A stretch of DNA of 51,407 nt from Girardia tigrina. Taxonomy: Eukaryota. Under the pieces are notes generated by a model. It did no database searches. It worked only from the letters and a program-made list of their open reading frames with translations, and was not told the DNA's origin. Location of the stretch: assembly GCA_001938485.1 (NCBI GenBank), contig MQRK01239951.1, positions 41,287 through 92,693 on the forward strand. Reading direction: 5' to 3'. The position numbers and the translations under genes were made by a program. Shown one piece after another: positions 6,066-51,407 of the stretch (position 1 is the stretch's first letter; the number at the start of each line of letters is the position of its first letter).

Positions 6066-6368
6066 TTTTCAAGAAGCCTCTTCATGAAGATGAAATTGCA
6101 TGTGTTGTAATAGAAGTGTTAAAAGGATTAAACTACCTACACAAGCGTAATTTTATTCACAGAGATATAAAAGCAAGCAATATATTGCTAACTGAATCTG
6201 GTCAAGTTAAACTGGGTGATTTTGGTTCAAGCAGTTTTTTAAATCCTGCAAACACATTTGTTGGTACTCCGTTTTGGATAGCACCTGAAGTTATTTTAGC
6301 GATGGAAAGCGGTTTGTATAATTTCAAAGTAGATATTTGGTCTTTGGGTATCACATGCATCGAAATGG
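6066..6368 (+). CDS. TAO: TAO-family STE20 kinase, exon encoding the catalytic loop and activation segment
   Basis: tttag|TT TTC AAG...GAA ATG G|gtatca. Encodes [11 protein letters not shown]...[12 protein letters not shown]...[54 protein letters not shown], matching the TAO signature [35 protein letters not shown]. Confidence 0.95.
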
Positions 6369-6589
6369 GTATCATTTATACTTTTTATTTTGTTTTATTT
6401 AAGTCATTTTCATAATTTCTCTTTTACAATTAAATATATAATGATTTTGATTATTATATTATTTTAAAATTGAAAATTATATTTAAATTTTGTATTTACC
6501 TGCATTTAATCAAATGTATGAAAAATATTCAGATTAGAGAAACAAGAAAGCGAAGTCCCTGTGCAAATGACTCAGAACTTGCAAACTAT

Positions 6590-9500: not shown

Positions 9501-9810
9501 GGACCACCAAAAGAAATACATGTAGATAGTGAAAAAACATTTGAATCAGCTTTTTTCAAGGATACGGCGATAAATTTCAAAGTCGAGATATTCTATTCGA
9601 GTTCATATCATCATGATACAAATGCAATCGTGGATAGTTTCGCACGATCAGAGATGCTTTGAATATTAGAATGAAGGATGGAGATCATAAAGATTGGACA
9701 GAAGTTTTATCAGAAATTGAGTTCATGTTAAATAGTACTGTACAAGCTACGACAGGCATGTCACCGGCCGAGATAGTATTTGGAAGAAAATTGAGACATT
9801 GGTGGAAAAC
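6590..9810 (+). mobile_element. Decayed Ty3/Gypsy pol (RT-RNase H-integrase), interrupted by a solo LTR
   Basis: KPYRQ, CSSPWN, FPMPNVDDML..KYFSTIDLGNAYHQ, V(Y)LGDILIF, FILDTNASFDTIGAVLSQ, FLLRTDHKA, HSNADSMSR, integrase H..C..C and FGPPKEIHVD. Many stops and frameshifts; ends approximate. Confidence 0.92.
7211..8163. mobile_element. AT-rich solo LTR (953 bp) with 5-bp TSD AGAAT
   Basis: agaat|TGTTGGG...CTTCACA|agaat. Removing it restores the Gypsy RT reading LRINPEKC. Confidence 0.85.
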
Positions 9811-10249
9811 AATTTTATTTAGAATTTTAAAATAAATAGATTAAATTAATTTTTTTTAAATAACTAATAATTATTTTAATTTTTATCCATTAAGTTTTGA
9901 GTAAATATTTTAACAACTTATTTATTTCTCCAGATATTCAGATAATAAGATTAAAGTCATTAATTAATAGACTGATGCAAAATTACGAAAGCTTTAACAA
10001 AGATTGTCCTGAGGACAATCAAACTAGTTGTAATAATAAAAATGTTTAAAGTCATATTAGTGTTCTTAATAGTCGGTCATGTTCAATCTCACATAGAAGA
10101 ATATTTTTCTTCAAAATAAACTAAATTTTATGAACAGGGAATTGAAACTCCAGAAACATGATGATCAAAGGTCCTTGATAACAATGCAAATTATATAATT
10201 GATTACAAATAAAATTAAATTCTTTTTTTGTTGCCATTTAAATAGTTGA

Positions 10250-21482: not shown

Positions 21483-23055
21483 TCAAATATTAAAATTACT
21501 GCACAATATTTTAAAATTAGTTGTTTTCACCTCCGATTTACAACCCTTCATATGTCCAGCAATATTACTCCCATTACCCAATCGTCCATACTCCTGAATC
21601 CGTTTACAGAGATGACGAGACGTCTCTCCAATGTATGTAGCGTTGCACCCATTACACGAAAATTGATAAACCAGATTGGAACATAAACTCAAAGGAGTAC
21701 GAGATTTATTGCTGAATATACTTTGAATTTTGTAAGATTTAGAAATGATTTTTAAATTCAAATTTTTACTATCGATTGATTTTAAAATAGACGATTTAAA
21801 TTTTTTGTAACCTTCTGAATAAGGAACGATTAGCGTATATCCAATATTAGAATTTTCATTAGATAATTTATCGGGTTTTACTTCGTCTTTACCCTTGTAA
21901 GTAGCGTTTATGCCACTTTCATTATTATCACATTCTAAAGCCATAATTTAACACCACCAAAAATTTATTAATATTTACAATTCATATACTTAAACAAATT
22001 TCTTGTTAATTCAATTATTTCGCCCAAAATTAGTTCATTAGATTTTTCGATTAAATTTTGAAAATATACAAAAATTTAAATCTAAAATAATCTTACATTT
22101 TTTTTACAAAAATTTTACAATAATAAATCTTAATTAATCTTATATTTTTTACAAAGAATTTTACAATATATAATCTTATATTTTTACAAAAATTTTACCC
22201 ATAAATAATTTACATTTTCTTACAAAAATTTACAAATTTTTAATATAACCAAATTTTAATATAACCAAATTCTTACGAAACTTGATCATAAAACTAACTA
22301 ATTTAAATTTACAATAACCATTTTATTAAAAAATTATTTCGGAAAATATTAATCCATTAATTAAAATTTATTTAGCTTATTCTATAACTTTTATTAAAAT
22401 ATGTTAATTGTTATTACTGTAAACATATTTTAAATAAGTATTTATTATCATATTTTTACTTACATTGTAATTGTTAATTTATTTCTTTTAAATTTTCAAA
22501 TTAAAAAAAATAATAAACTATTTTGGCGAAACTTAAAACTAACCCCTCATAACCCTCATGTTCTTTATTCATTAATTTATCTATCGTCTCATTAGTTAAT
22601 TTCTCTAAAAATGATTTCGAATAGCCATTTTTCTGCAATAGTTCTGTTAGTTTATCTATGCTTGCATCTGCTTTTTCATATGTTGATGATAGAGACCAAC
22701 ACATCAGTAACAAACCTTTTATCATACTTCTATTATACTTAAAAGCTTTTAGTAGTAGTATATAGCCCTGTATCTGTTTTCTTTCTATAAATCTCTGCCT
22801 CGTAACGACTCCCTTTTCTCTCAGGTGAAAACAACTAATTTTAAAATATTGTGCAGTATTTTTAAAAAATATGTGGAAAGAGTTACTTGTGAAGCATTAT
22901 TAATTAAATCACTTAATCCGTCCATTAATGTACAAACAAGTTTCTCTTCCAATTTGTTGAAAATATTTAATTAGTTATTACACAAGATGTTTACATAATC
23001 ATCAATTTGCTATATATAAGACAGGGAAATTGTTTCTAATTCAGCCTGAAGATGG
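21483..23055 (-). mobile_element. Penelope-like element 1: RT C-terminus plus GIY-YIG endonuclease (- strand) with an inverted pseudo-LTR (22823-23055, + strand)
   Basis: IYRKKTDTGLY; LLQKNGYSKSF; SNLVYQFSCNGCNATYIGETSRHLCKRIQE. 36 bp at 21497-21532 are inverted at 22823-22858, which continues ..CEALLIKSLNPSINVQ* then TATATAAG and CTGAAGA. Confidence 0.88.
21936..22553. mobile_element. AT-rich insertion splitting Penelope 1, resembling the solo-LTR family
   Basis: Interrupts KEHEG / ECDNNES; ttaacaccaccaaaaatttatt resembles 7241 ttaacaccaaaattttattt; no clean TG..CA or TSD. Confidence 0.45.
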
Positions 23056-23290
23056 TGGCCGGAGCGGCTGCTATTCCGAAAGGCATTCTTTTAAAACAAT
23101 ATTGACCATTCTTTGCCGAGAATGCCGTTTTAATCTTTGATTCTTCATCAAGTTTAACTTGATAGTATGCGTTTCTCAAGTCAATTGTAGTGAAATACTT
23201 TGCACTATTCAATGTGTTCAACATATCATCCACATTTGGCATAGGGAATGCTGGTCTGAGAGTAACTTTATTTAATTGTCGAAAAGATTT
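23053..23290 (-). pseudogene. Gypsy RT fragment (same family as 6590-9810)
   Basis: MPNVDDMLNTLNSAKYFTTIDLRNAYYQVKLDEESKIKTAFSAKNGQYCFKRMPFGIAAAPAT. Confidence 0.9.
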
Positions 23291-23483
23291 TATTGCGACA
23301 ATAAAATTTGATTTTAATGGCGTTCTTAATTATACACCTTATTGTTCAAAAGATTTTAAATACTTAAAAACAACTTGAATATCATTTACTTATTCGTATT
23401 ATTTAGTCTGATTTACATTTATTTTCTATAAAAATGTTATTATTGCTTTAATATAATTATATCATTATTATTCATTATTTAAG

Positions 23484-23628
23484 AAAAAACAAAGTCCAAC
23501 TGAAGTGACTAATGCAAGGCAAAATAATGTTCCTGTGAAATTCGATGCGAAATTATCTCACAGCCAGTCAGACAGTGTTAAACTTATAACCGAGAAGAAT
23601 AATATGCTTTCCAGCTCCAAATCGTCAG
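23484..23628 (+). CDS. TAO: TAO kinase exon (linker)
   Basis: tttaag|AAA AAA CAA...TCG TCA G|gtattc. 145 nt open, phase 0 to 1, which is the phase change needed between the neighbouring exons: KKQSPTEVTNARQNNVPVKFDAKLSHSQSDSVKLITEKNNMLSSSKSS. Confidence 0.65.
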
Positions 23629-24014
23629 GTATTCATTCTTGAATGAAGTTTTATGGCCATTTGTAGCATATTGAATCATTAAGAATTATATATTTTTACA
23701 GAAATAAAAATTTGTATTTTACAGGGGCAATTTTATATTTATTGTTATAATTTCTTGAGATGACCATTTCAACGGGCAATTATATACGAACACTTTTTCT
23801 ACATTTGTGGTACTCGCGTCAATGTCAGATTAATAAAAAAAAATCAAAATTACATTTTTTTGCTTAATCGAACTCAGAAATTAGTGAACATTTGAATTTG
23901 ACTGTAATTGTGAATAAAAAAATTAATGTATTTCTAATCGATTTGAAGAAAATTAAACAAATCAAATTATAATGGATATTGGCAAAGAGACATCTTTTGA
24001 ATTAAGTTCCTTCA

Positions 24015-24503
24015 TTATTTTCGACCCGACTCTGCACGAATGAAACTGAGGAATTAATGAAATCGACCGCTCAAGAAAACAGAATAAAACTCCTTTACAC
24101 CAACAAGCTGCCACGCCACGCGGGAGTAGCACGAATACAAGTTTCACGGATTCACGTGTACTCGGGTACACGGGGCCAGACATTACGGTCGCTACTGCTG
24201 TCGATCGCGGTCCGCACTGAACGGCCCCTCGGTCACACCGGGCATCCGAACGTCGGCGTCGTTACACCGGTGGGACGAGTCTTGGGGGAGTCTACCGAGA
24301 CAGCGGGACGACTACACATATTTGAAGCAGCATCCAATGTAGCCCTTTGGAAAACAGACCTCTCTACAATAGAGTGGTTTGGGACTCGGCTGACTCGAGC
24401 TGTGTCTCGGACTACAATATTATTATCCATGAAATGAATAATTAATATTAATAAATAATAATTAATATAAATAATATTACTGGTTCTAGGCCGTTTCTGC
24501 ACA
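24015..24503. other. GC/CpG-rich island of unknown origin (possible LTR fragment)
   Basis: 39/60 G+C at 24181-24240 against strongly AT-rich flanks; ends in ...TGCACA; no TSD found. Confidence 0.4.
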
Positions 24504-24827
24504 TAAAATTTGTTTCAACTGAATACATAATATTTTAATTATAATTACTATATCTATAAAAAAATTTAAAATAAACAGTATTTTTGGGTAAATATTTCTT
24601 AAATTCTTTTATATATTATTGATAAATACCCAACCATATTTATTCTATTGCAATATCTTTTTAATTCTTTATATGTTCTTAATACAAAAAGAGGATATTT
24701 TTATAGCATAAATGCATCTTAAAAAATTGCATCTTAGCATCTTTATTTTTCAATAAAAGCTTTTTGTTCAACAATACAATTTATATTAATGTATAAAGTT
24801 GTATTGCTGTAGCATACATTTATTTAG

Positions 24828-24956
24828 AAATCAACATTGTTTTATATTTTTAATTACACAAGTAAAAAAATTAGCAATTTGTTTATTGCAAATCAACATT
24901 GTTTTATATTTTTAATTACACAAGTAAAAAAATTAGCAATTTGTTTATTGCAAATC
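24828..24956. repeat. Exact 62-bp tandem duplication
   Basis: aaatcaacattgttttatat...gtttattgc x2 plus aaatc. Confidence 0.92.
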
Positions 24957-24959
24957 TAG

Positions 24960-25435
24960 GTAAATGAGAAACTTTTTCAACCTCATTATAAGTTTCTGCT
25001 ACAGTACAAGCTACTTTTTGTGATAATATTGCATATTCTTTCTTCCGAGGTTCTGGATTTCCATTTCTTCCATTTTTAAGGGTTAGTTTATGAATAGTAA
25101 TATCTTTAATTAATCCACTACAAAGAAACCAAATACTAGGATGCTTAGAAAAGAAAACAAACTTTAGGTAGTGCCTGTTTAGACTTTTGCCTGTTACCTA
25201 ATATCTAATCCCTTGATTCAAATTACTATCTTTGCATAGTTATCATCAACAGGAAATGTTTCAATTAGTATCTGAAACATATCTAATACATCTTCAGGAG
25301 AAACAAATACAATACCAGGTAACATTTATAGTTGAAATTTATAAGAAATTCATAAGTTATTTTAAGCCCAACATCATTAATATATATCTCATGTCCACCT
25401 TTGTATAGGAAGCCATGTATTTTTCGCAGCAGGTT
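24960..25435 (-). pseudogene. Second Mutator-like transposase remnant
   Basis: YINDVGLKITY..MLPGIVFVSPEDVLDMFQILIETFP resembles MULE GL...Y...LxALAFVPxxDV...F..L. Confidence 0.55.
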
Positions 25436-26059
25436 CTAACATGTTTGTGACTCTTTATTTTCATAAAAAAGGTTATCGTAGATAATTAGCATTAATTTAA
25501 AACATTTGTATGTTACACATTCAAAGTAAGAAAGAAGGAAAATTTAAGTGATGTTACAAAATCTTTTTATCAATGTCTCGTTTGAAAAAAAAATATTCTC
25601 AAAAAACCAATGTCGGAAAGCTAAAAAATATTTACATCAATAGTTCAGATTTTTTTTAATGTTTTGAATCAACGTTCAGATAGAAAATTTCAAGGGTCTG
25701 AAATAAACTCTTTTAGAAGTGACAACATATATCGACTCTTGTCACTGAGAAATAGCACAGCTACCTCAAATTAGTCGAAGATGGAATATTTTTGAATCAA
25801 TTTAGAATCTGCTACAATTCCGAAAAATTAATTAAATTTGAATTGAAAGTTTAATTTTAAATTTAATTTAATTTTAAAAAAAGTTTAAAGGGCTATGCGT
25901 ATTAATTTGTGCAACCAACATAAAAATCTTTCACTTGAATATTTATAAAGCTTATATACTCCTTATAAGCGCAAAGTAGAACTTAAATTTTACTTTGGAA
26001 AGTTAGACTACATTGATTTGATAATTAAAGATCAATAGATTTTTGTTACTTGCCGATAG

Positions 26060-26165
26060 TGCAACCAGTAATGATTTGGGGATCATTTAGCAATCGTAAT
26101 ATTGGTTATCTACATCTTTTCCAGAAAACAGTGAATATCGAGGGATATTTGAAAATAATAAAAAA
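26060..26165 (+). pseudogene. Tc1 transposase fragment
   Basis: VMIWGSFSNRNIGYLHLFQKTVNIEGYLKII resembles VMVWGCFS..G.G.L......MN...Y..IL. Confidence 0.55.
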
Positions 26166-26233
26166 AATATAAAAAAATAATAAAATATTTTATATTTCAT
26201 TTAAAATATGTAAAACACATTTACTTGATTTAA

Positions 26234-26455
26234 CCCTTGAATGCATCTTGTATCAAAAATGATACAACAAACGTTTGAAAGTGCCATGCATCCAGTTTGT
26301 GTAAATAATTGCTGTCCTTTGTAAATAAATTATCTTTGTACATTTTTGTCTATGACGATTATAACAAAACATGTCAAAACTCCCAATCTCAAATACATCA
26401 AATCTAAACAGAAAAAAATATTTCATGAAAAAATAAAAAATCATGCATTTAAGGG
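26234..26455. mobile_element. piggyBac-type MITE (222 bp)
   Basis: TTAA|CCCTTGAATGCAT...ATGCATTTAAGGG|TTAA (12/13 TIR match, TTAA TSD). Confidence 0.85.
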
Positions 26456-27981
26456 TTAAAGTCTGATATATTTCTAATTTCTATTTTAAAGCAATGATTG
26501 TTAGAATGTATCTTACCAAAAATAAATATTATTATCTTAGATATTAATAAATATATATTATCTGATACTCGGTTCACGTTTTTACTTTCTTTCGAAATTC
26601 GATACAGAAGGTCATATTAAAAACATTGGCTCATACTTCCCAAAAAGTTATTTTATTAAAAAAAATCAAATCATAATTTTGTATTTACATATTACACTTC
26701 AACGATGTCGATTGGATACCAACTTTTGCATATTTTCATTGACAACATTACCAAATGATGCTTCAGTAGTAGATTGAAAATTATGATCATATCGTATTTC
26801 TAGCAAAATCTCTTACATTACTAACGGTAGTATTTAACTTTCTTTTCTCGAAGATATCCACAATCACGTGCAAAAGGAAAGTATGGACAATAAAAAATTA
26901 GGAATTATCAAATTGAACATTTTTCGAAAATCACTACTATTTCAATATCTCTACATCTACTTTATATCTCGAGTTACTCTTGTATTTTTCTTTCAAAATT
27001 TTTCGTGTCAGTTTAAAGTATGGGTTTGAGTATAATTTAAGTTGTCATTGTCACCTAGAAGAGTGAGACTCAATTGTAATTGTTTAAACACCAAAACCTT
27101 AACAATATAAATATATTGGACATTTAATTAATTTTGTATCAGATAAATTAAATTTGAAGCCCTATATTTAAAATTGAGGTTATCGCGACTTATTAATTAA
27201 TTTCAATTTATTAAGTGTTTCTATTTCTGAATTATCTATTTTTGTCATAAAACAAAATTATTTTGATTTAAGTCATAATAAAACTTCGTTTTACGTCAGT
27301 GATATTTTGTACTTAAGTATAAGTTATTTTTTTCGTAATACAAATTTATTTTGAATTTTTAATCATCAATATGAAAAATATTTTAAATTATGTAAGAATG
27401 TGGTATATTGTTTTTAGTGTGTTGAAATTGGAATAATTCCAATCACAATTATTGTGACTCTTCAGAAAAGAGTTATTCATCTCACAGATGACTCTAATTG
27501 TAATGATAATAAATGTTTTAATAACAACTGTATCAGTGCTCTTAACAATCAAAAAATGATACAAGCAATTTAACTTTGTTTTTTTTTAAATAATGTATAT
27601 CTCAGATTTACATATAATTGCAAAATATTTATTATATTGTATTTAATAATAATCATCAGATTAAGAAGTAAGATTGTAACGCTTTATTCGGTGCAAGAAA
27701 CTATTTGATAATATTTTAATTGTGTTTTTTATCCCCAAGCTTCAAAATAACTTTATTATTTGAAATGTTTTTAAAATAATTATTAATTTTCAGTGATCTG
27801 GGTTTCGGTTTTTATATTAAATTTAATCTTGGTAAACATTGCATTTTTATTACTACATAATTTTATTGCTGTTACAACATGATAAATCATCATTTTTGAA
27901 TCAAAATCGATAGGTTATTAATTATTCTGTTAAAAGGTAATGAAAATATAATAAATAAATAAATACAAAGATTAGAAGACA

Positions 27982-27983
<2 letters not shown>

Positions 27984-28020
<37 letters not shown>

Positions 28021-28669
28021 NNNNNNNNNNNNNNNNNNNNNNNNNNNNNNNNNNNNNNNNNNNNNNNNNNNNNNNNNNNNNNNNNNNNNNNNNNNNNNNN
28101 NNNNNNNNNNNNNNNNNNNNNNNNNNNNNNNNNNNNNNNNNNNNNNNNNNNNNNNNNNNNNNNNNNNNNNNNNNNNNNNNNNNNNNNNNNNNNNNNNNNN
28201 NNNNNNNNNNNNNNNNNNNNNNNNNNNNNNNNNNNNNNNNNNNNNNNNNNNNNNNNNNNNNNNNNNNNNNNNNNNNNNNNNNNNNNNNNNNNNNNNNNNN
28301 NNNNNNNNNNNNNNNNNNNNNNNNNNNNNNNNNNNNNNNNNNNNNNNNNNNNNNNNNNNNNNNNNNNNNNNNNNNNNNNNNNNNNNNNNNNNNNNNNNNN
28401 NNNNNNNNNNNNNNNNNNNNNNNNNNNNNNNNNNNNNNNNNNNNNNNNNNNNNNNNNNNNNNNNNNNNNNNNNNNNNNNNNNNNNNNNNNNNNNNNNNNN
28501 NNNNNNNNNNNNNNNNNNNNNNNNNNNNNNNNNNNNNNNNNNNNNNNNNNNNNNNNNNNNNNNNNNNNNNNNNNNNNNNNNNNNNNNNNNNNNNNNNNNN
28601 NNNNNNNNNNNNNNNNNNNNNNNNNNNNNNNNNNNNNNNNNNNNNNNNNNNNNNNNNNNNNNNNNNNNN

Positions 28670-28702
<33 letters not shown>
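27984..28702. repeat. (TA)n microsatellite spanning an assembly gap
   Basis: TA runs on both sides of the N-run; same pattern at 32044-32158. Confidence 0.8.
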
Positions 28703-28705
<3 letters not shown>

Positions 28706-29228
28706 TAGAACTTCGTTATAACGGACCTTCGGTTAGTACGTACGAATATTTTAATCCTGCCAAACCATGCTACATTCAATTTAATATTTTTCGTATATTA
28801 CGGACTCTGTTATATGGGACTTTCGGTTATAACAAACCAATTCGCAAGTCCGCTGAAAAAATAAACCTGTTAGTACGGATGTTGCTTTGTATGTGTATGT
28901 ATGTATTTTTATAAGATGTAAAATCATAAATAATTTTTTTATCTTTCCGTCTCCATAATAAATTTTACATTTGAATGCAAAGAATTCATATAATTTAAAA
29001 ATGCAGAAATCGTAATTTCCTCACGATCTCTTTATTTAAATGATTATTTTTCGCAAAATTTAATAATAAAGAACATAAATGCTCATCTACTTTTAATGGG
29101 AGCATTTTACCATTTTTTCTAAATTTCTCAATTTTCTCAAATTGAAAACATTCATTTTATTAATATAATCAAAATAATTCAATACAACCAACCCATTTCC
29201 CATATCGAAATCACCAATATTTATCTTT

Positions 29229-29289
29229 TTGAAAATATTTATTAATTTCGACGATTTAACCGTCACCGTCAGAACAAATGATTTTTCAA
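29229..29289 (-). ncRNA. Mirror hammerhead copy with core mutation CUGACGG
   Basis: Reverse complement of 30075-30135 except A to G at the last CUGANGA position. Confidence 0.6.
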
Positions 29290-30074
29290 ACGAAATTTAC
29301 TTATACAGTGCAGTTAATGATTATGTAATCAATACGTAATCAGTACATCATTTAAAAACTCTCAACAAAGTTGTAGAGAGTGCAGTTTGAACGTTAATTT
29401 TAGGATCCAAAGATCTTATATGATAACGGATATTCAAAATCGATAGTGGAGAAATTAACAAAAGAAACTATTGATAAATTAATTGACAAAAAAAGTAATA
29501 CTAAACTTTTAGATGTTCAAGATCAAGAGCAATCTTGCAGCAATAATGATAAAAGTTTGGGAATTGGTTATGTGTTAACTGTNNNNNNNNNNNNNNNNNN
29601 NNNNNNNNNNNNNNNNNNNNNNNNNNNNNNNNNNNNNNNNNNNNNNNNNNNNNNNNNNNNNNNNNNNNNNNNNNNNNNNNNNNNNNNNNNNNNNNNNNNN
29701 NNNNNNNNNNNNNNNNNNNNNNNNNNNNNNNNNNNNNNNNNNNNNNNNNNNNNNNNNNGCCACATACATTGGAGAGACTTCACGTCATCTCTGTAAGAGA
29801 ATCCAGGAACACAGTCGCAATGAAGGTGGAAGTAACATTGCAGGACATAGAAGACAATGTAAAGGAGATATAAATTCCAACACTTTAAAATTCTGTGCAC
29901 TCAATTTAAAAATTATTGGGAGAGTGACATGTGAAGCGTTATATATTAGATTTTTGGATCCTAAAATTAACGTTCAAACTGCACTCTCTACAACTTTGTT
30001 GAGAGTTTTTAAATGATGTACTGATTACGTATTGAATACATAATCATTAACTGCACTATATAAGTAAATTTCGT

Positions 30075-30135
30075 TTGAAAAATCATTTGTTCTGACGATG
30101 ACGGTTAAATCGTCGAAATTAATAAATATTTTCAA
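30075..30135 (+). ncRNA. Minimal type I hammerhead ribozyme (Penelope-associated)
   Basis: ttgaaaa.tgtt-CTGACGA-t-GACG(gttaaat)CGTC-GAA-ATTAAT-A^aata-ttttcaa: intact core, stem II, palindromic stem III, AUA cleavage triplet, stem I. Confidence 0.75.
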
Positions 30136-33100
30136 TTGGCTTTCGAATTTTGATTTTAATAATCTGCCAATTTTATTTCAATTTATTCATATTTATCTTT
30201 TTATTCAATTTTTTTTCAAATAATACTTTTTAAAATTAGATATTCTTTATTACTTTAATTTTCATTTTGTTTTAAATATTTATTTGTACTGTTAAAAAGA
30301 ACGTAATTTAAATTTTAAAATGTAATTTAATTAAATTAATCAATTTCAGTATTACAAATTTGTTTGCTCTATTATTTTATTCTTGTTGGTATTCATGCAA
30401 TGAGTGAAAATCACAAGCGAACTTCATTTACTTTAGAGACACAAAATCAGATTATTCATGAAATTGAGTCGGAAAAAACAATCTGCTGTTTCACTAAGTC
30501 TAAAGTTCTCCAAGCAAACGGTTAATTCAATTTGGTAAGATCGTGTCAGACTACGCCATGTCTATGAGTCAAACTACTACATTGACAGCAAAAGAATGTG
30601 CACTGCTATGTTTGATGATGTTAAGGCAAGCACGAATGATTTCAGTGTAATAGATGGCTGACTGGACAGATTCAAAACTCACCATAATATTGTGTTTCGT
30701 GATATTTGTGGAGAAGCAGCAGTAGTTAATGAAAATGTTGTCACAACCTGAACTTCAACTCACCTACCAGTTCTTCTTTCCTGTTTTGCACCCTGCGATG
30801 TAGTCAACGCTGATGAAACTGGGTTATTCTTCCGTTTACTTCTAGACAAGACTGTCTTTTAAGGGCGACGCATGTCATGGTGGTAAGCAAAGTAAAGTAT
30901 TACTGTTATTGTGTGTGCAAATAGAGACTGTTCCTAAAAGTTTCCGTTGTTGATGATTGGGAAATACGAGCGTCCTAGATGCTTTAAGAATTTCAAAACA
31001 CTTTCAGTGCCATACACGTTTAACAAGAAAGCCTGGATGACATCCCAAATATCTAAAGACTGGGTTCCCAAGTTAGACAAAAAGTTTACAAGTCAACCCC
31101 GCTAAGTCTTGGTCATCGTTGCTAATTGCCCAGCACATCCAAAAATAATCAACCTCAATGCAGGAACCTTAGCATTCCTCCCAAAAAATGCAACATTCTG
31201 TCTGCAGCCATGTGACATTGGTATTATCAAGAATTTCAAGGTCAAATATCGTCAACTGATTTCTAAACGTGTGATCGACAGTATTGAAGGAAATCACTCT
31301 TGTCAGATTAATATTCTGGATACCATGAACATGCTTCAATTAGTTTGGAAAGATGTTACTCCAAAGGCAATTATACTACTGTTTTCGTCACACTGACAAC
31401 ACATCATTATAAACTCTCCGTGATACAGACGATGAAACCAATGCTGATGATATTCCAATGATGCGTCTCTTTACAGACAGTATAAAATTTCTTGAATTTG
31501 CTATGGTTGATGACAACATTTATGTTTGGGATCTACCAAGAGACAGTGATATTCTGAGTGGCATTTTGGTAATGCAAAATTCTAAAGCCGTGACTGAAAA
31601 CGTTGATGAGGAAGAGAGCTCGATGGATGATGAGCAAGGTGCTGCTTCCATTTCAACTGTAAGTGATGTCATGTAAGCTATTTCAACTTTACGTACTTTT
31701 ATGCTTGGTGCGTGTCATAGTGATACTACTCAGTAAAATCTTCTTTCTATAGAATCGTTTGACTTGCAAGGATGTTTGTGAAAAGTGCAGTCGAAGGTAA
31801 CAGACTTTTTTAAACCAAAGCAGAAATTTTAAATCTTAGGTAACTGAAGTGTAATATTGTTGTACGTACATACGGTAACTTTTTGGAACGTGATTTTTTT
31901 GGAAATGTGATGTCAGTTAATAAAGTTTTTTATTTTATATTTAATATTTTATTTAACAAAATTGACGATTTACGTTTATAACGGACCTTGGTTAGTACGG
32001 ACATTTTTTACGGTCTAATGAAGTCCGTACTAACGAAGTTCTGTATATATATATATATATATANNNNNNNNNNNNNNNNNNNNNNNNNNNNNNNNNNNNN
32101 NNNNNNNNNNNNNNNNNNNNNNNNNNNNNNNNNNNNNNNNNNNNNATATATATATATATTAATTTTTTTTGAAAAATAGTTTTGATAAAGCTCTTTGAAG
32201 AAATTAATTATTAAATATGCTTCACCAATTATAATTAATGTTTGTTTTTTATGTTAGTTTTAGAAAAAGTTAATTTTAAGAGAATTATTTTTTTACATAT
32301 TTTAATTATTTAAGATATTATTGGATAATAATGGTAAAATATTTTAAAAATTTAATTCAAGATTTTAAGATTTGAAACGGCTTTATTTTGACCATTCTAA
32401 ATGTTTTTAATGTGTTTCTTATCAATAATGGATTCACAGAACTGCTTCTCATAATGTGAATCAAAGCCCTTTTGTAAAACAGAAAAGTCATCATTTGAAA
32501 CAGAAGAGATTCTATTTTAAATATAAATACTTCTGAATATTTAACTTTGTAATTTTAATGTTCAATCTTTCCTCCTTGTTTAATTTATCAGTGACAAAGT
32601 TTCTACTGTTTTAATTGTGCTTCAAAAATAATATTGAGTAATAAAAATATAAATCTAGAAGGTTTCATTACATAACGAATAGCATCATAGTTTGTGAAAA
32701 ACAAACATAACAAAAATAATCTTCTTTCAAATATTTACTTGTTAATCAGTTAAACTCAATAATGCTATGAAAATATGATGTAAATATTTATTTTATAATA
32801 AAAATGTTAAGATATTATTGCTTTTCAAAAAATTAGTAGACAATTATCATTTGATTTGTACCTCAAACCTCCAAATTTGACCCAAAACATCGTCAATCTG
32901 GAATGTATTCTCTCAGAAATTTCATGTTGAAGATTGAAACTGTCTGTTTTTCTTTTTCGATAATTTCTAGTTTTCTAAAACTATTTTTGTTTTTCTCTTG
33001 ACCATCATTTTTTTATTTTATTACAAGAAGAATATGAAATTAGTTACTTATACTGAATGTACAAGATTATTTTTGAGATTAAAGACGATTGAACACTTTA

Positions 33101-33509
33101 ATCTAATGTGTATGAAAATCGTGGTTTGTTTTTTTCTTCTTTTCAACAAGTTAAATCATATTTATTTGTGATGGTAATAAAATACAGTATTAATAAGAAT
33201 TTTACGAAATAATTCTTTAACAATTTTTTATTCAAAAGTGTTAGGTCAAAGGAATTTTTTAGAAAATGAAACTCATCCTTTTTAAAATATATTATTTTTA
33301 TGTACTTCGACATATCAACCGTTCTCCTTAGTTCATTGAAATATTTGTGATTAATCTGTGTATAATGTACAAATGATTGTTCATGAATTTCTGCACTTAT
33401 CTTTATAAATTTTTTTTAAGATAAGTTTTAAAATATATATTATAATTTTTAAAAGATTGTAAAAATGTATTTTTTTTATGTTTATTATTTTAAAAAAATG
33501 AAGTTCCGA

Positions 33510-33830
33510 ATCATGGAGATGCATTCAAAAAAACTGTAAGGGTCGACTAAGATTACTTATTAATGGTGAAAGAGAAGTGATAGCTAAAAATTCACATGGA
33601 CCGAGTCCAGCTATAAATGAAGCATTGCAGAGTGTCCATTGTACATACCATACGAGAACTAGCTTTGAGTACTGTTGAAAAGCCTAGACAAATATATCAA
33701 AGAGCGAAAAATGGTGTTTTTCTAGAAGCAGCAGTTTTCTTTCCGGCTTATATTCAATTTAAAACTAAATATTTTGTCGGAGCCCTATTATCGGTTGGCG
33801 CTTTATCGGGGCCCTTTTATCGGCTCACCG
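33510..33830 (+). pseudogene. Mutator-like fragment with FLYWCH-type zinc finger and TE end
   Basis: WRCIQKNCKGRL...NSHGP; TIRELALSTVEKPRQIY; followed by ttatcgg repeats ending ..CACCG. Confidence 0.6.
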
Positions 33831-33989
33831 TTAGAATTCCCCGTTCTTTTCGTTAAGGGTATCGGCATTTACACACAATATCATATTAGTATTCAAAGTT
33901 CAGTTTAATATTTTTTTTCAAAAAAATATACATGGATTACATCCTGGGCATCTCAAACAATAGAGTTTGATTCATCTGGAATTTTTCAC

Positions 33990-34250
33990 TCAATTGACCC
34001 GCGTTTAGACTCTGACAGATTCAGTCTGAGATGGATTTCATCTTGCATGATGGTTTTACTCAGGAATGCCTCACAATGCTTTTGAAAAGAAAAGTTTCCA
34101 TAAGAGCACTCCAGCTTCTTCTCACATATCTCTGATGAAAAAAGCCCGAAACATATGTAGATGCCAGCTTTCTCACTTCCAATTTATGCAGATTTACTTG
34201 TATGGTTCTTTGACTCAACTTCATAACATCAACCAATGCTGATGTTGTGA
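33990..34250 (-). pseudogene. Degenerate mariner transposase fragment
   Basis: LSQRTIQVNLHKLEVRKLASTYV (resembles RKLxARWVP) and TIMQDE. Confidence 0.45.
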
Positions 34251-35310
34251 TTCTAGACTTTTCTGGTTGTAAAGATTCGCAATTTTCTTTTATTCTGACA
34301 AAACTTTCACATGGATGCCTAGTCCTGTGGTCATCAAAAACTGACTATATCCCTTGTTTAAACAGTAATGAAGAGTCTTCCTTTTTTTCTCTAATTGGTA
34401 ATAAATGTGGTTATTCGGGACATACTTAACCAGAAAGTTTTATAAATCAGTGATATTCCACTGCATCAATCATTACTTGCTCCAAATTTCAAAATCTCGC
34501 AAATATGAAAATAAATTGTAATAATTAAATAAACTATAGAATTGAATCTATAATACTATGTCGGTCAAATTAATTTTACCAAGCTAGAAAATATAAAAAG
34601 CAACTACTGAGTTCAAATATTACGAATTGTTCAATAATGAGTATGACCACCCTTCATGGCATGCAATTATCGAACGCCATGTTTGAAAATTTTAGCGTGG
34701 CTTTTACTTGTTTATTATTTATTTTTTTATATTTTCAATAAAAATGAATCAAGATACTTCGAGTTTTCACTATTATTAACTTATATTTGAAAATAAATTC
34801 TTTTATTTTTATATTCACTATCAAGCAATCATTGTATTGCGTTCTTTTTCAATTCTTTTCATTAGCTTACTTTCTATATATATACATGGGATTTAGAAAC
34901 CTATTTTTGAATGCTTTTTACTCAATCGATTTTCTTCAAACTTTGCGTATTTACTCATTCTCGATGACAATAAATGATTATGTGAAAATTTGATCACAAA
35001 AAACTTTTTAAGATCCCAAAATGGGAAAAACGGAAAATTCGGAATTCCAGAACAATATTAATTTCAAGATGTCTACTTATAAATTATAAGTTGTTTATAT
35101 TAATTTTTAATGTGTTTTTAATTAAAATTTTTTAAATTTTAAAAAATTTGTTGGTAAAGTAGAGTTCTTTCTGCATAAAGAATGTATATAAAAAATTTAA
35201 TTTTTTTATTTACTAGTTAAATGTTTATGTTATCATTATTCATACAAATAACATTTATTGGATTTATATTATTATTTCATGAAAATCATTTATAATCAAT
35301 TTCTTCGTAG

Positions 35311-35579
35311 GAGACATCTCTAAAAGTGGTAATGATAGCAAAGTTTCCAGACTAACTAGACAACAACAAAGTATGGACTTTAAATCAGTGGAAAATCTGC
35401 ACATAATTACTCTGAAAGTTAGCAGTAACAGAACATTATCATCGTCTTCAGAAAGTTCTGAAGATAAATTTAAAAGTCCTTCAGATATAAATGAAATTTG
35501 GCGTGAACAAATGAATGGATTTAAGAGAATTCGACATCAGCATAAAAAATATCTTCAGCAGTTGGAAGAAAAAAATCAA
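35311..35579 (+). CDS. TAO: TAO kinase exon (start of coiled coil)
   Basis: ttcgtag|GA GAC...AAT CAA|gtaaca. WREQMNGFKRIRHQHKKYLQQLEEK resembles TAO [24 protein letters not shown]. Confidence 0.9.
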
Positions 35580-35834
35580 GTAACACATTATTTATAATTC
35601 TAATTTGGTGAGAGTTTCAAAATAAATTTATCTTTTATTAATTAATTAATTTTATAACACTATTAAAATAAAGAATTTATTTTTGTAAAAATCTCCAGTT
35701 CTAGAAGTAGTTAATGCGTTAATAAGAAAAGCCGCAAATTTCTTAATGACTTCGCTCTTAAAAATATATTAACATTTTATAAATATGGAAAAATGATGAA
35801 AAATCAATAAAATAAATCAAGATATCATTTTTTT

Positions 35835-35960
35835 AAAAAAATTATTTAATCGATTGTCCATTGTCATCGTCAGAATAAATTAACATTAGTTTTAGAAAGA
35901 GATGATTGTGCAGTTAACAGTTTCATCAGGCTATATTTGAAAATATTTAGTCAAGAATGG
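35835..35960 (-). repeat. Degenerate Penelope pseudo-LTR / hammerhead remnant
   Basis: ttaactgcac ..34 nt.. ttCTGACGAtgac, the same layout as element 2 (35 nt); GAAA half decayed. Confidence 0.5.
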
Positions 35961-36016
35961 GAATTTTTATTTTTTTAAAATGTGGAAATATATTAAAATA
36001 TTTTTATTAATGAATA

Positions 36017-37259
36017 CAGCCGAACCCCGATTTAACGAATCCCATATTAACGAAAACCCTGATTTAATGAAAGAATAGTGAAGCCCCTGCCGAAACCCCG
36101 TACATTGTATGTATATAAGCTCCCGCTTTAACGAACCCCATTTTAACGAAAACCTCGATTTAACGAACGTTTATCACATTTTACAAAATCAAAACCCTGC
36201 CTTACCGAAAATTTACCTATGATACACTTGGTCTTTTTAATTTTATCGATGCAGCGAGATCTCCAGTACAATATGCTAGTAGTAACAAAGCTTGGATGAA
36301 TCGCTCTCTTTGGAATGAGTGGCTTACTAAATTCGATCAGCAAATGACACGAAAAAATCGCAAGATTTTACTAATTGTCGACAATGTCTCAAGCCACTCT
36401 GCGCCGCCGCTTTCAACTATTGAATTGGTTTTCCTTCCACGTAATACTACGTCACTTAGTCAGCCTTGCGATCAAGGAATTATTTCAGCTTTTAAGATGC
36501 ACTATAGAAGCTCCCTGGTGAAGTGCCTTCTTCTTCATATTGAATTAAAGAAATCATGGGCAGAATTCCGAGTCAATATTTGGATATTATTTATCTGGCA
36601 GGAAAAGCATGGGAAAGTGACAGTACAGTCACTGTCGCTAATTGTTTTCGAAAGGTGGGATTTCAACAATAAATAATCATTGTTCCTGTAGAATTTACTG
36701 AACCACGGGAAAATTTGGTTGAAATGCAGGTCATCTGGGAAGTTCTAAGCAAGATTTTGGTTCCACGTTCAGTTTAACATCATATATGGAAGAATTTGTT
36801 AACATCGATGAAGATATTACGACGGAAGGAATTCTTACTGATGAAGAGATTCTTAAACAAGCTCGAAGTGAGAATAACGAAGGAGAATATGAAACAAATG
36901 AGTCTCTCTAACCACAAGCAGTATAACAATCTGAAGCAATTGCTGGTCTCTCTGATTCGTCAGTATTGCAATGAACGCGGAATATCCGGAAAAATTTCAG
37001 TCGTAGATTTAGAAGCCACTCTGGCGAGATCTGCCTTAAGTCGACGATGTCAAACCACACTGGATGGTTTTTTGTGTTTTGATTAACGAAATGTTTTTCA
37101 ATAAAGTACATGAATTTTTATTCTTTAAATTTTTAAAATGAAAAGTAAATAAAATTTGGGATGGATAGGCCATTACAGTCAAACCCCGCTTTAAGGAAAC
37201 CCCATTTTAACGAATATTTTCTCGATCATAGTGTTTTCCGTTAAACCCGGGGTTGACTG
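36017..37259 (+). mobile_element. Internally deleted Tigger/pogo element
   Basis: TA|CAGCCGAACCCCG...CGGGGTTGACTG|TA; KAWMN..KILLIVDNVSSH..FLPRNTTSLSQPCDQGIISAFKMHYR; QTTLDGF; N-terminus absent. Confidence 0.9.
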
Positions 37260-38153: not shown

Positions 38154-39648
38154 ACAGGGTTTTTCATAAATATAGCGACAGTTTTCATAAATAATTGAAC
38201 AGTTTTCATAAATAAACGGACAGTTTTCATAAATAATTGGATATTTTTCAAAATTAAACGGACAAATTTCCATAAAAAAATAAAAAATAATTAAAAATTA
38301 ATGTATATAAAAATATATAAAGGTTAGAACTGGTTAGAAAATGAGTTTACATAAATAAATTTCCATCGAATATTTTAATTATAAAATTAACTTTATCTAA
38401 TTCATGGTTTCCCAAAAATGCCGATAATATTGACTACATACTGTAAAATCCTGTAAGTTGGAAATTATAGTCGAAATATTTGAAATGAGAATATTTCGGG
38501 AATTTGCTCTCGGTCTTATTCGATCTAAACTTGATTTAATTGTTGAAAAAATATTTTCAATAGGATTTAGATCGGGACTTTATGCAGACAAAAATAGAAT
38601 TTCGATATTTTTCTGAATGCAAAAGTCTGCAATCTCGGCACAGTGATGAAACCTAACATTATCAAGAACAAGTGCTGGATTTTCAACAAAGACTTCGCGC
38701 TCATAACATTCGTTTAGAAATGTAAGAAATATTTCCCTGTTATATGTACCATCAACGAGTTTGAAATGGTCGATTCGATTATTCGATATTATTGAACACA
38801 AAGAAACGTTTCTTCCTTGTGATCTTGGTTGGTACAGAATCGCCTCTTCTGACCCAGCGCTATAACCATAGTTTTTTGATGTGTGTAAATTGAAGCCAGA
38901 TTCGTCCAAAAACAATATTATCCTTCGAGTCATACCCAATATGTTAAAATGTCTGTCTTGCGTTTCGATTCTCATCCGTAACTCGAACAATTGATCTTTT
39001 CTTGAGTCTTTTTTCGAGTAAGATTGACTGTTTTCATTTCTCGATACATTTGAGAAACGAAAATTGGTGATTGTAGCAGATCTATACATCCCTGTAAAGT
39101 TAAAAAATTATCGTTTCACATAATGCTTCGAATCTCCACGTGTAGCTGGTTTTATTTATGATTTTTCGTCCCGCCTTTTTATATAAATTATCATATTTTG
39201 TATCTTCTTCGTCACATTCCGTAATCTTTTTTATTGTGGTATATACGGAATTACGACCCAATAATGTGACCCTACATATATCTTCCACAAAAATCGACAC
39301 ATGTTCTTTTAATAATATTAAATTTTTCTTCGTTCATTACTATTCTCTGTTTCCGTTGATCGTAAGTATTACATTTTGTATTCTGATTTTCCATTTTTAT
39401 TGTATTTGAAAAATTGTATACTTTCTATCGACTTTGTAATAAATTCAATAAAATATATCGAAAGGTTTTATATACTAGAATTTATATTGTTTGTTTCTTA
39501 ATTTTAAAAATAATTTTAAATTATTTTTTATTTTTTTATGAAAATTTGTCCGTTTAATTTTGAAAATGTCCAATTATTTATAAAAACTGTCCAATTATTC
39601 ATGAAAACTGTCCAATTATTTATGAACACTGTCGTTATATACCTTGTA
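38154..39648 (-). mobile_element. IS630/Tc1-like DD34E element with long TIRs built from 21-bp tandem repeats
   Basis: (gacagttttcataaataattg)n at 38170-38270 inverted at about 39535-39639; FLDESGFN, VLDNVRFHH..34 aa..SPDLNPIENIFS (one in-frame stop). Confidence 0.88.
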
Positions 39649-42470: not shown

Positions 42471-45109
42471 TTATAAAGTGAATATAAATAAAGAAATTTA
42501 TAAAAACACCTTACTTCTTAATTTTTATATTTGAAAATTCTATATTTCTAAAATTGTGATTTAAATATGATATTCAGTACCCTTTATTAATGTAAAAGGG
42601 ACCTAATAGATTGTAAAGTTGTATATATTTTGAAAAATGCAATGTTTTTAAACAAATGTTAAAACAAATTTGTTAATATTGATTTTAAATTATTATCGCA
42701 ATTTAAATTAAATAAGTTTGTTTTTTTTTATTTTTCGCGAGATTTCTCGGACCGCGGAATTGCAATGTCCCTAATGATGAATCAACTTTTCGATATATGA
42801 TATTGACCAAGCGTTCTTATTTAATAAATTTGTTTGTTTATCATTAAACATTTAACAGATTTTGTATCTACTAAAGAGACCACAATCGTGATATTAAATA
42901 TACTTGCATGTTATACTCATATACCCTTTGTACCTATATTTACAAAAGCCATTCGGAGTTATGAACAATCCTGTATCAGTTTTCTTTCAATAAATATCAT
43001 TTTCGTAGAATTTAGATATTCCATTAATCAATGTGTTAAAGAGTAGTAAATTATTTAATACTCTGATTGTAAATTAAATATAATGGATTAAATTCATATA
43101 TAATGGGAAACGATTATGCATTATGTTTTTTTCAAAAATTGAAAATATGATTTGCATACCATCTTGTGACTTAAATCCTAAAAACAAAAATAAGATTTTC
43201 TTCAATGTTAGACAAAAAATGATGATAATGTTTGTACAATTGGATATAGGATTGCGCCTTCAATAACTGGTTTTACCATTGATTATTGAATTAAAAATGA
43301 ATATTTGATGTAGCGAAGGTCTAAAGTTATCAAAATGATATTTCATTCAAATAATTAACGTAAGTCTAAGTTCTTTGTTCTGTAAATTAATTTTGTTTTT
43401 TGAGAATTTTATTTTTTATTATATACAATTTTATATGAAACACAAAGTCGGTTCTCAGAACAAAAACTAATGGACATGCGTCAATTATTTGACTTTTTTC
43501 CATAGTTATTCGAAACACTGTTTAAATCTAATTTAACGGAAATTTTAAAGAAGAGGAAATGAATTTAAGTTTCGGTCCTAAAATTCATAAATAAGCATAA
43601 ATTTCAATCAAAAATGTATTTAGGATGTAAATAGGATGAATTTAAAAATCATTTCTCGGTCTTATGAAATTTGTTTGATACTGAATTCTAAACATCACTT
43701 GGTTTGTGTTCAGATCTCGTTTATAAATATACATATAAAGATGCAACGCATTTATAAATGATGGGATTGCATTAATGTAATATTACTGATCATAATTTAC
43801 AATGTAAAAATAAAATGATTTTCCAATTCTGTGCAATCGATTTTTAAATTATTGATAGAGAATGATGAGTGTGTCCTTATTAAAAAGAATAATTGATTCG
43901 AGAATTAATATTCAAGCTTCACTTTCCAATTCTCAGCTAAATATTTTCAAATATTATCTAATGAAATTATTGATAACATAATCATTTCTTTGGGATGTTA
44001 ATTTATTCTGACTGGACAATACATCGAAATTCATTATTGAATTAAATTTTTAAAAATGGCGTCTTGATTTTACTTTTATAAATATTTCATTAAATTATTG
44101 TTTATTTTATTACTACGTTGAATGATTTAGAATGAGTTACATCCGTCCTAATATTCTATTTAATTTGTGTTTACACTTTATAATATGAGGTATTTGATCG
44201 ATCTGAATTGTTTAAAATTTTTTAATAATATCTAATGAATTATGGACTTTTGTTAATATTTCTTAAATAAAATTTGGAAGCAATAAACAAAAAAATATAT
44301 TTCAATAAATTAACCATTATCATTGCATGCATTATTGAACTAAATATCGATTCAAATGTAAAATAGGAAAGAAGCTAAGGAATAAATTTAATTATCTGAA
44401 TTGTTATTGTGCTTGAAAATTTAAATGGAAAGTAAAAATTTATGTACAAATAATTATTTTGTATGAAACTACTTTAATCTTTATGAAATCAATAATTTTA
44501 ATATATTTTTGTAACACTATTGTTGCACTAGTGTCACTATAAATCATGGGTTCTGTGTTTAGATTTTGTTAGGGTCAAATGACGTTTTTATATGTATGGA
44601 AAGATAAAAAAAGACAATGGGAAATATTGGGTTTCACCTGTTCTAATGTAATAAACTTGATACAAACTTTATTCTACTTCGTTCCGCACAATTCTTAAAT
44701 AGGGATTGAGAAGCAAAACACTTCCCTTGCTTGATATGTTGGAAATAGATAAAATAGATATTTAATAGATATTAATATATAAGTTAATTTTGTAAAGTAT
44801 CCCCTGGAAAATGTTCCGGAGACCATCTTTCAGGTGCGTAGCTAGGATTTCATTTCGGCGTTGATATTGATGAACATGTCACAATTTCTCCCACACTTAC
44901 ATATATATTCACACACACATAATCATTCACACATACGCATACTGACATCGTTAAGGATTTTTTGGTCCTTTTAAATAGCGTTTCCATATTGTTTATTGTT
45001 TAGCAAGAATGAATAGAGGCTGGTTATATAAATTACAGTGTATTCTACAGAAATAGTACGGAATAAAGAATTTAATAAAGAAAAGAATAGTTAAATTTAT
45101 ATTAAAAAG

Positions 45110-48929: not shown

Positions 48930-51407
48930 AACTTAAACAGGAGAAGAAACCAACAAAGATCAACGAATAACAATTACCAAGGAGTGGGTTGCAATCAACG
49001 ACAATATAGAGATAGAGAAGACAGGAGAAGAGGAGACAATAGATGATCAGTAGCGAACATTGAAGAAGAATATGAAGAATCGGTAATAGAGGAAGATTAC
49101 CCAAAAGACAGAGCCTCGACAGAAGTGGAGCCAGTCGGGGCAATAAACTAAAAAATATAAAGGACTCCCAAAATATCGGTATTTATAGTAAAAGTAGTAT
49201 AACAGATATTATAGATGTAATGAGCGACAAATCAGAAAATATTAAAGCGGTAGAATTGAACGTAAATGATAAAATTCGGAAGTTTATAAAAAAAGATATA
49301 TACGGAGATAATTGTGGAAAATGTTTAGTTGAACCAGTAGAGGACAGAAATACTAACGAAGAAACCAAAATTTTAACCATAGAAGAATGGAAAGCTAAAA
49401 AATCGTATACAACAAAATGCAAGGTCGACCAAGTGTAAAAGTAAAAATACAACATATCAAGGAGGACTGTTTATTAGACACTGGAGCTAGAGTGAACGTC
49501 ATGATCAAGACGATTTTTGACAAACTAAAGGATGTGGAATTGGAAGCAGCAGATATTAAATTACACTGTGCTAATAATAGTCCACTAGAATGTATTGGTA
49601 AGATATCAGTGAATGTATATATCAAANNNNNNNAGAGAAATATAACGTTCATAGTGGTAACTGACATTAAACCAGACATAATAGGCAGAATAAATTTTCA
49701 GAGTGAGTTCGGAATTGAGTTATGTTGGAAAAAGGAAAACGATGAAATACCCGATCAAAATTTTCTGGTATGTAATTTAGAAGCAAGATTCGGTCGGAAA
49801 GTGACAGACGAGGAACGATTTCAGAAAGCCAAAAATACGATGCATATCGCTGATAAACCAAAGATAATCAATATCGTAGAGAGGCNNNNNNNNNNNNNNN
49901 NNNNNNNNNNNNNNNNNNNNNNNNNNNNNNNNNNNNNNNNNNNNNNNNNNNNNNNNNNNNNNNNNNNNNNNNNNNNNNNNNNNNNNNNNNNNNNNNNNNN
50001 NNNNNNNNNNNNNNNNNNNNNNNNNNNNNNNNNNNNNNNNNNNNNNNNNNNNNNNNNNNNNNNNNNNNNNNNNNNNNNNNNNNNNNNNNNNNNNNNNNNN
50101 NNNNNNNNNNNNNNNNNNNNNNNNNNNNNNNNNNNNNNNNNNNNNNNNNNNNNNNNNNNNNNNNNNNNNNNNNNNNNNNNNNNNNNNNNNNNNNNNNNNN
50201 NNNNNNNNNNNNNNNNNNNNNNNNNNNNNNNNNNNNNNNNNNNNNNNNNNNNNNNNNNNNNNNNNNNTATTGGGGGATATAGAACAGACAGTAGTTTATT
50301 TGGACGATATCCTAATCTTCTCAAAATCATTAGAAAAGCATTACGAGATTTTAGACAGAGTATTGGATAGAATTGAAAAGGCAGGTTTAAGAATTAATCC
50401 AGAGAAATGTCATATTTTAAAAACAGAAGTCAAATTCCTGGGGCATGTAATCAACGAAAAAGGGATTCAAACAGATCCGTCCAAATAGAAAGCTATTAAA
50501 TCGTTTGAAAAACCGAAATGTATAAAGAATTTAAGAAGTTTCCTAGGGATCTGCAACTATTATAGAAGATTCATCAAAGATTATGCAACGAAAGCAAAGA
50601 CATTAGAGCAATTGTGTGGATTGGACAAGAAGAAATTATTGTGGACAGAGGCGTGTGATATAGCATTTGCTGAGATGAAGGAAGCCTTGACTACACCCCC
50701 AATTCTTGGATTTCCAGACGTGGAGAAGGAATTTATTCTAGATACGGACGCTAGTTTTGATACCATTGGCGCGGTACTGTCACAGAAGGACAGAAAGGGT
50801 CACGAGAGAGTCATTGCATATGGGTCACACTCAATGAGTAATCATGAGAAAGGTTACTGCATAACAAGAAAGGAGTTATTACCAATGTATTACTTTTGTC
50901 AACATTTTAACCACTATTTGTACGGAAAGAGATTCATTCTGCGGACAGATCACAAGGCAATTACATTCATGCTGAAGACAAAGAAACCAATTACAGCGCA
51001 ATTTCAGACGTGGATAAACTNNNNNNNNAGTCTGGATATACAATTAGAATACCGAAAAGGAGTGAACCATTCTAACGCAGATATGTTATCGCGGAACAAG
51101 TGTGATACATGCACACAATGTTTAATGGCACACGAAGAGGCAAAGACGCAGAAGTTCAAGACACGAAGGATAAACGTATTAGGTATCACAGATATATTTA
51201 AATATCAAGGAGTCATGGAAACAATAAAGATGAACATAAAGGCAGGTAAAAATAAAAACCTTGTGATTATAGATGGTATAATAAAGATAAACAAAGGAAA
51301 AGTTTGGATACCGGAATCAAACAGAGAAGAAATGATTATGCAGATACACACGTTGCTTTCTCATGCGGGTGCGGAAAAAGTCACAAAATATATTGCAGAA
51401 AAGTATG
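48930..51407 (+). mobile_element. Ty3/Gypsy gag end plus pol (protease, RT, RNase H, start of integrase), running off the window
   Basis: LLDTGARVNV, VVYLDDILIF, LRINPEKC, FILDTDASFDTIGAVLSQ, FILRTDHKA, NADMLSR, H..LSHAG; gapped, few stops; left end approximate. Confidence 0.93.

Follow-up and report, generated by a model that had tools for sequence, protein, structure and literature searches.

Minimal type I hammerhead ribozymes (min-HHRs) occur in the pseudo-LTRs of metazoan Penelope-like elements (PLEs). A single min-HHR was reported to be without detectable cleavage, and dimers showed low activity (Cervera and De la Pena 2014, PMC4209133). The PLE hammerhead of Anolis cleaves only with the element's protein, and RNA-seq was reported to yield no reads that start or end at its cut site (Frangieh et al. 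2024, PMC11167929). A truncated, inverted and one-tailed structure is typical of PLEs (Craig et al. 2021, PMC8557442). The Cpeb3 ribozyme has a half-life of 2-3 min and modulates mRNA output (PMC10919898). In the 51,407-nt stretch of Girardia tigrina DNA analysed here, referred to as the window, a minimal type I hammerhead motif lies on the sense strand of a TAO kinase intron (Table 1). The kind has been known since 2014; the copy and the subfamilies are new, and there is no sign of host co-option. We consider it very likely that this is the hammerhead of a truncated, 5'-inverted Penelope-like tail that is predicted to be paired with its own antisense arm in the TAO pre-mRNA, and that it probably neither cuts nor alters splicing.

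Following standard hammerhead numbering and the NUH rule (H at position 17), the motif contains all the conserved core residues, namely C3-U4-G5-A6-N7-G8-A9, G12-A13-A14-A15.1, U16.1 and H17. Re-reading of the sequence found CTGACGA, GAA, the palindrome ATTAAT and A30124 at the positions given by the first-pass annotation. The same annotation had described a 4-bp stem II; its pairing of GACG (30100-30103) with CGTC (30111-30114) is present, but the helix in fact has 6 bp, GACGGU/AUCGUC, one of them a G-U; in the family it reads GACGGU/ACCGUC. Its bipartite stem I, composed of TGTT (30088-30091) with AATA (30125-30128) and TTGAAAA (30075-30081) with TTTTCAA (30129-30135), can likewise be read in the sequence, but conservation does not extend beyond the inner 2-3 bp. 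These inner pairs alone covary across families, the fourth pair is formed in 19 of 46 distinct aligned rows, and other subfamilies lack the outer helix. Closure as type I by a short stem I is indicated by the covarying pairs, though disfavoured in the monomer fold. The predicted cut after A30124 was supported by the subfamily comparison. The alternative register with a cut after 30120, which corresponds to the lowest-energy helix of the monomer, was discarded, as the other subfamilies do not allow it and instead keep the register of the 6-nt palindrome.

Table 1. Features of the insertion, the hammerhead motif and the surrounding intron (positions in the window).
Feature	Positions	Strand	Basis or remarks
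TAO kinase intron holding the insertion	23629..35310	+	GT..AG, phase 1; junction in contigs of X12, X1, X5
Pogo/Tigger-type DNA transposon (DDE_1), older	28716..32063	+	Ends approximate; Pfam DDE_1 E 4e-12 at 31106-31393
Candidate target-site duplication, left	29217..29230	+	14 bp; 0/1000 shuffles; empty-site paralogs hold a single copy
Inverted 5' arm	29229..29421	-	193 nt, 5 mismatches to 29943-30135; model R1 47 bits
5'-truncated Penelope-like ORF, 3' end (linker plus GIY-YIG endonuclease)	29416..30016	+	Translation; weak Pfam GIY-YIG below cut-off
3' UTR / pseudo-LTR	30017..30188	+	TATATAA 30057-30063, hammerhead, ~53-nt tail; many family copies end ~30189
Hammerhead motif, minimal type I	30088..30128	+	Sequence; covariation (46 distinct rows); model R1
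Stem I 5' arm	30089-30091	+	Sequence
Core CUGACGA (DNA CTGACGA)	30092-30098	+	Sequence
Unpaired extra U	30099	+	Between positions 9 and 10.1
Stem II arms	30100-30105/30109-30114	+	Sequence
GAAA	30115-30118	+	Sequence
Palindrome ATTAAT (AUUAAU), helix III	30118-30123	+	Sequence
Position 17 = A	30124	+	Predicted cut after it
Stem I 3' arm	30125-30127	+	Sequence
Candidate target-site duplication, right	30189..30202	+	14 bp; 0/1000 shuffles
Cryptic splice donor GTAAGT in pogo element	31659..31664	+	A single minor X1 contig links it to exon 35311

Compared with the min-HHRs of PMC4209133, the motif shares the CUGANGA and GAAA core, the additional nucleotide that separates positions 9 and 10.1 (here U30099) with the G10.1-C11.1 pair, a longer stem II, a short stem I with an ill-defined loop 1 and a small palindromic helix III, which is found there in Drosophila spp., rotifers, shrimp and mosquito. 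The family also resembles them in its thousands of mostly solitary copies and in opposite-strand pairs 100-700 bp apart. Judged by sequence, the motif carries every PLE minimal hammerhead feature that was examined. Unlike those min-HHRs, it belongs to new subfamilies in the Girardia tigrina genome and its stem I covaries over 2-3 bp only; the copy with its core at 30092 also has a minority G-U in stem II, and masking by an inverted arm is not discussed in the accessible part of that paper, whose supplement lists min-HHR consensus families that might include the one found here.

The Infernal search with Rfam models proposed in the first-pass annotation was run on 23000-36000 and returned no hammerhead match at E<=10; its five weak hits were to other models. 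In addition, the fold of the isolated monomer shows no gain in stability over its shuffles (z -0.96). Support for the motif must therefore come from comparison with other copies. The family model R1 scores the copy at 30088..30128 with 56 bits, a value given by construction since the copy is in the training set.

A fixed-length core pattern matched the genome 13,376 times, compared to 6 times for a reversed control, with G at position 17 in 129 of the matches. Exact copies of the common 33-nt form number 1,911 and those of the form at 30092 only 49, making the latter a rare stem II variant. Counting by eye through the 100 matches listed first gave 86 with a palindromic helix III. The search pattern fixed the core, G10.1-C11.1 and A15.1/U16.1. 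Covariation was assessed in an alignment (A2) whose 52 rows, 46 of them distinct, represent several subfamilies. The rows are related and include 20 loci chosen by eye for diversity; 5 of the 36 motifs from one set were omitted (two duplicates, two near-identical family copies and one with a longer stem II). In this alignment, 83.8% of cells were paired versus 64.9+/-1.3 after shuffling, and the covariation score was 0.512 versus 0.199, a value reached by 0 of 500 shuffles and by none of the slid controls (<=0.217). In stem II, five of the six pairs change on both sides. The stem I pairs adjoining the core occur as U-A, C-G or G-C and as U-A, A-U or G-C, respectively, and the palindrome varies by subfamily between ATTAAT, ATATAT and ACATGT with 94.9% of cells paired. 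Lack of conservation and covariation among genomic copies had been named beforehand as grounds for giving up the hammerhead, but the copies show covarying stems and palindromes. The substitutions point to selection on the motif between subfamilies, as far as rows that are related and partly hand-picked can indicate. That the motif is a chance look-alike of a hammerhead or an assembly artefact could be argued from the missing Rfam match, the unremarkable monomer fold and an N gap close by, but the thousands of copies, the near-zero control, the covariation and the fixed place after the GIY-YIG stop leave this reading a vanishingly small probability.

The assignment of the hammerhead to the Penelope pseudo-LTR type was also confirmed, as it follows a GIY-YIG ORF and longer copies carry an RT. 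The motif starts 75 nt past the stop of the + strand GIY-YIG frame, within a 960-bp, 5'-truncated Penelope-like insertion extending from about 29229 to 30188. Two longer family copies (L092 and L093) encode an RT plus, at the C terminus, GIY-YIG in one ORF, with Pfam matches in L093 to RVT_1 (E 6.7e-10) and GIY-YIG (E 3e-4). Endonuclease-bearing Penelope-like elements have this layout. None of the family loci followed yielded a full-length element, and a frame of 968 aa at a further locus (L091) was rejected as a full-length element, being mostly N. At 29583-29758 the assembly is interrupted by 176 N, and family copies have about 183 bases in this place.

The 5' part of the insertion is an inverted copy of its 3' part, which the first-pass annotation had overlooked. 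This arm holds a second, antisense hammerhead copy, whose core at 29266-29272 has G in place of A9, and is the only other strong match to the family model in the window. No second intact sense copy was found in the whole window with this model, and other CTGANGA..GAAA matches in the window score low on it. The tail at 30136-30188 is missing from the inverted arm. An outward-facing inverted pair was observed at 16 of 30 window-like loci, some of which are near-duplicate contigs, and a same-strand pair at 1 of 30. The truncated body, inverted arm, one-sided tail and AT-rich target agree with endonuclease-bearing PLE insertion units (PMC8557442, PMC11167929), although the tail is ~53 nt here compared to 30-40 in those units. 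In contrast to the non-LTR retrozyme (bioRxiv 10.64898/2026.07.22.740005), head-to-tail tandem units are absent and the copies are inverted. The 14-mer of the right candidate duplication occurs in 1 of 67 family tails, the one at 30189..30202 itself, and about 13 further bases separate this duplication from the point where the host repeat resumes. At 9 of 11 paralogous loci, the left flank is joined directly to the right-flank sequence with one copy of the 14-bp repeat, and the Penelope piece was therefore inserted into the older pogo/Tigger element. The insertion appears young, judging by the 5 differences in 193 positions between its arms. Nesting in pogo together with this young age argues against a host-co-opted, locus-conserved ribozyme.

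TAO2/TAO3 are the best matches of the 6068-6370 exon (E 1e-41), and the kinase lies on the + strand; the exon that follows the intron gave no match when used as query in a protein search. Splicing was followed in contigs from four runs (X1, X5, X12 and X13), the "RNA" type of which is a guess and whose individuals may lack the insertion. Contigs from three of the four, belonging to three studies (X12, X1 and X5), join 23628 to 35311, and the intron is therefore real and spliced, which upholds the earlier placement of the hammerhead in sense orientation within this TAO kinase intron. The depth of this main junction is 639 in X1 and 129 in X5; X13 gave no contig on exon 35311. Contigs also join 35579 to sequence at 47239. 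As a separate observation, a low-depth X1 contig skips 67 nt within the TAO exon (35417-35485) with GT..AG ends, its short side measuring 20 letters.

The first-pass annotation went further and proposed a potential self-cleavage site in every TAO pre-mRNA, with possible effects on splicing. That such a site would be usable is not supported by the following results. The inverted arm runs antisense to the entire ribozyme, and transcription reaches it about 520 nt ahead of the sense arm. In the predicted fold of 29150-30300, with the N gap between the arms kept unpaired, the arms form a 193-bp duplex in which 30075-30135 pairs with the left arm at a mean probability of 0.97 and stem II has a probability of 0.0. 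With the arm present, forcing stem II would cost 45 kcal/mol and forcing the open hammerhead 64 kcal/mol at 37 C, in an equilibrium calculation that ignores RNA editing, helicases and proteins able to open the duplex. Read-through from the kinase promoter would make 29229-29421 first, and this arm would zip onto 29943-30135 ahead of the synthesis of the core at 30092. A ribozyme paired in this way would likely neither cut nor affect splicing. Even without the arm, the isolated monomer is predicted to prefer a shifted helix covering the cut site, with the catalytic stem I register at P<=0.006 and the open hammerhead costing 5-8 kcal/mol at 37 C. Furthermore, the window offers no second intact sense copy, and the junction 23628/35311 is spliced at high contig depth. 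Finally, at the density of the 13,376 genomic matches, 0.055 sense copies are expected by chance in the intron and 0.20 in the 42-kb gene span, and about one in five genes of TAO size (~20%) would therefore hold a sense intronic copy by chance.

In active full-length elements, the motif would work as in other Penelope elements, with a weak activity that depends on a partner through the palindromic stem III, and probably on the element's protein, and with transcripts initiated in the pseudo-LTR as its substrates. By analogy with the published PLE hammerheads, the TAO-intron copy would be dimer- or protein-dependent, unlike the Cpeb3 ribozyme. It has in common with the Cpeb3 HDV-like ribozyme (PMC10919898) and the amniote ultraconserved intronic hammerheads (PMC6765202) that a sense ribozyme motif lies in a long intron. 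However, those ribozymes are conserved at their locus and that of Cpeb3 is active alone, whereas the TAO-intron copy is a young nested repeat predicted to be masked.

This comparison bears on a stronger proposal, in which an appreciable fraction of the TAO pre-mRNA is cleaved by the ribozyme, which acts alone or in trans through the palindrome with other Penelope RNAs, and thereby tunes splicing or output in the manner of Cpeb3. The intact core, the sense orientation in a real intron, the thousands of potential trans partners sharing the palindrome and the Cpeb3 precedent (PMC10919898) are consistent with it. Nevertheless, we regard it as very unlikely, considering the predicted masking, the dominance of the spliced junction, the youth and nested position of an insertion that bears no sign of host-level conservation, and the low published activity (PMC4209133, PMC11167929). 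Pairing in trans also appears weak, as the palindrome duplex is worth -0.2 kcal/mol and a two-molecule fold does not adopt a hammerhead dimer, in a method that cannot represent the true dimer topology. Low-level cleavage of the TAO pre-mRNA may occur, but an effect on the kinase is unlikely on the basis of the modelled folds and of the analogy to published PLE ribozymes.

A minor contig of run X1 joins 31658 to 35311 at a depth of 7.2 versus 639 for the main junction (~1%). Its donor is located downstream of the ribozyme, and cut or internally started RNA could also yield it. This contig raises another explanation, in which an internal promoter of the pseudo-LTR (TATATAA at 30057) produces RNA without the antisense arm, so that the hammerhead folds, transcription reads through pogo, and splicing from 31658 to 35311 gives a minor RNA for the C-terminal coiled-coil part of the kinase. 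PLE pseudo-LTRs are known to contain promoters (PMC6765202, PMC2377424), although the Penelope promoter of D. virilis is TATA-less (PMC2377424). In most subfamilies (window 30057-30088; L029, L031-L080), a TATA-like word stands at a fixed distance before the core, peaking 35 nt upstream of C3 and lying within 50 nt in 46 of 74 distinct motifs, counts that carry no control for AT-rich DNA. The word is rarer in the ACATGT subfamily, and we take TCATTT at 30083-30088 to be an initiator-like motif. The explanation is distinctly unlikely, considering that the junction comes from a single contig in a single run and that X5 shows a different minor partner on acceptor 35311, absent from the window, which looks like ordinary cryptic splicing. 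The stem II variant adds a further difficulty, as in short contexts T30110 favours a competing helix in which the core is occluded (P 0.65-0.82 at 37 C); in longer contexts this helix falls to 0.26-0.37 at 37 C and 0.07 at 20 C, and stem II wins (0.61-0.93). Inactivation of the 30092 copy by T30110 was considered separately and found weak, since the competing helix dominates in short contexts alone and both arms carry the T. The source element therefore likely had the T and still moved.

Masking by the antisense arm, our preferred reading, could be extended into a general one, in which the 5' inversion of Penelope insertions is a built-in antisense lock. Whichever way a host transcript runs across an outward-facing pair, the antisense arm would be synthesised before the ribozyme and would silence it. 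RNA from the pseudo-LTR promoter would escape this lock and, at this locus, would be trimmed at 30124 and spliced from 31658 to the TAO exon to give a minor TAO transcript without the kinase. We consider this combination very unlikely. Among the papers listed in a literature search, none dealt with an antisense lock formed by an inverted arm, which is weak evidence. If such a lock exists, inverted arms would shield host genes from ribozymes, and solitary sense copies, but not inverted pairs, would be depleted from introns. Cutting of the TAO pre-mRNA, if true, would provide a rare example of a host gene on which a Penelope ribozyme acts. As it stands, the locus carries little weight, since the motif class has been known since 2014 and this copy is one among over 13,000. 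Its by-products are subfamilies with clean covariation and three palindromes, which provide material for tests of dimer-dependent or protein-assisted cleavage.

Other repeats were observed in the same region. The pseudo-LTR of another Penelope subfamily is located at 23010-23058 (+), after a GIY-YIG fragment at 22759-22974 and upstream of the exon ending at 23628. It contains the 5' half of the hammerhead only (CTGAAGATGGTGG) and directly abuts a fragment of a Gypsy RT that lies on the other strand. Two decayed hammerhead remnants of related families lie antisense in the next TAO intron at 35839-35878 (-) and 44294-44323 (-), with scores of 17.6 and 20.6 bits, respectively. Further transposon remains in the TAO region, at 6600-9840, 36164-36676, 38580-39107 and 49047-50800, consist of Gypsy-type RT/RNase H/integrase pieces and additional DDE transposases, the Pfam scan having covered 36164-36673 alone among them. 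Elsewhere in the genome, locus L029 (1450-2750) holds three Penelope tails from two subfamilies inserted side by side, with a hammerhead in each.
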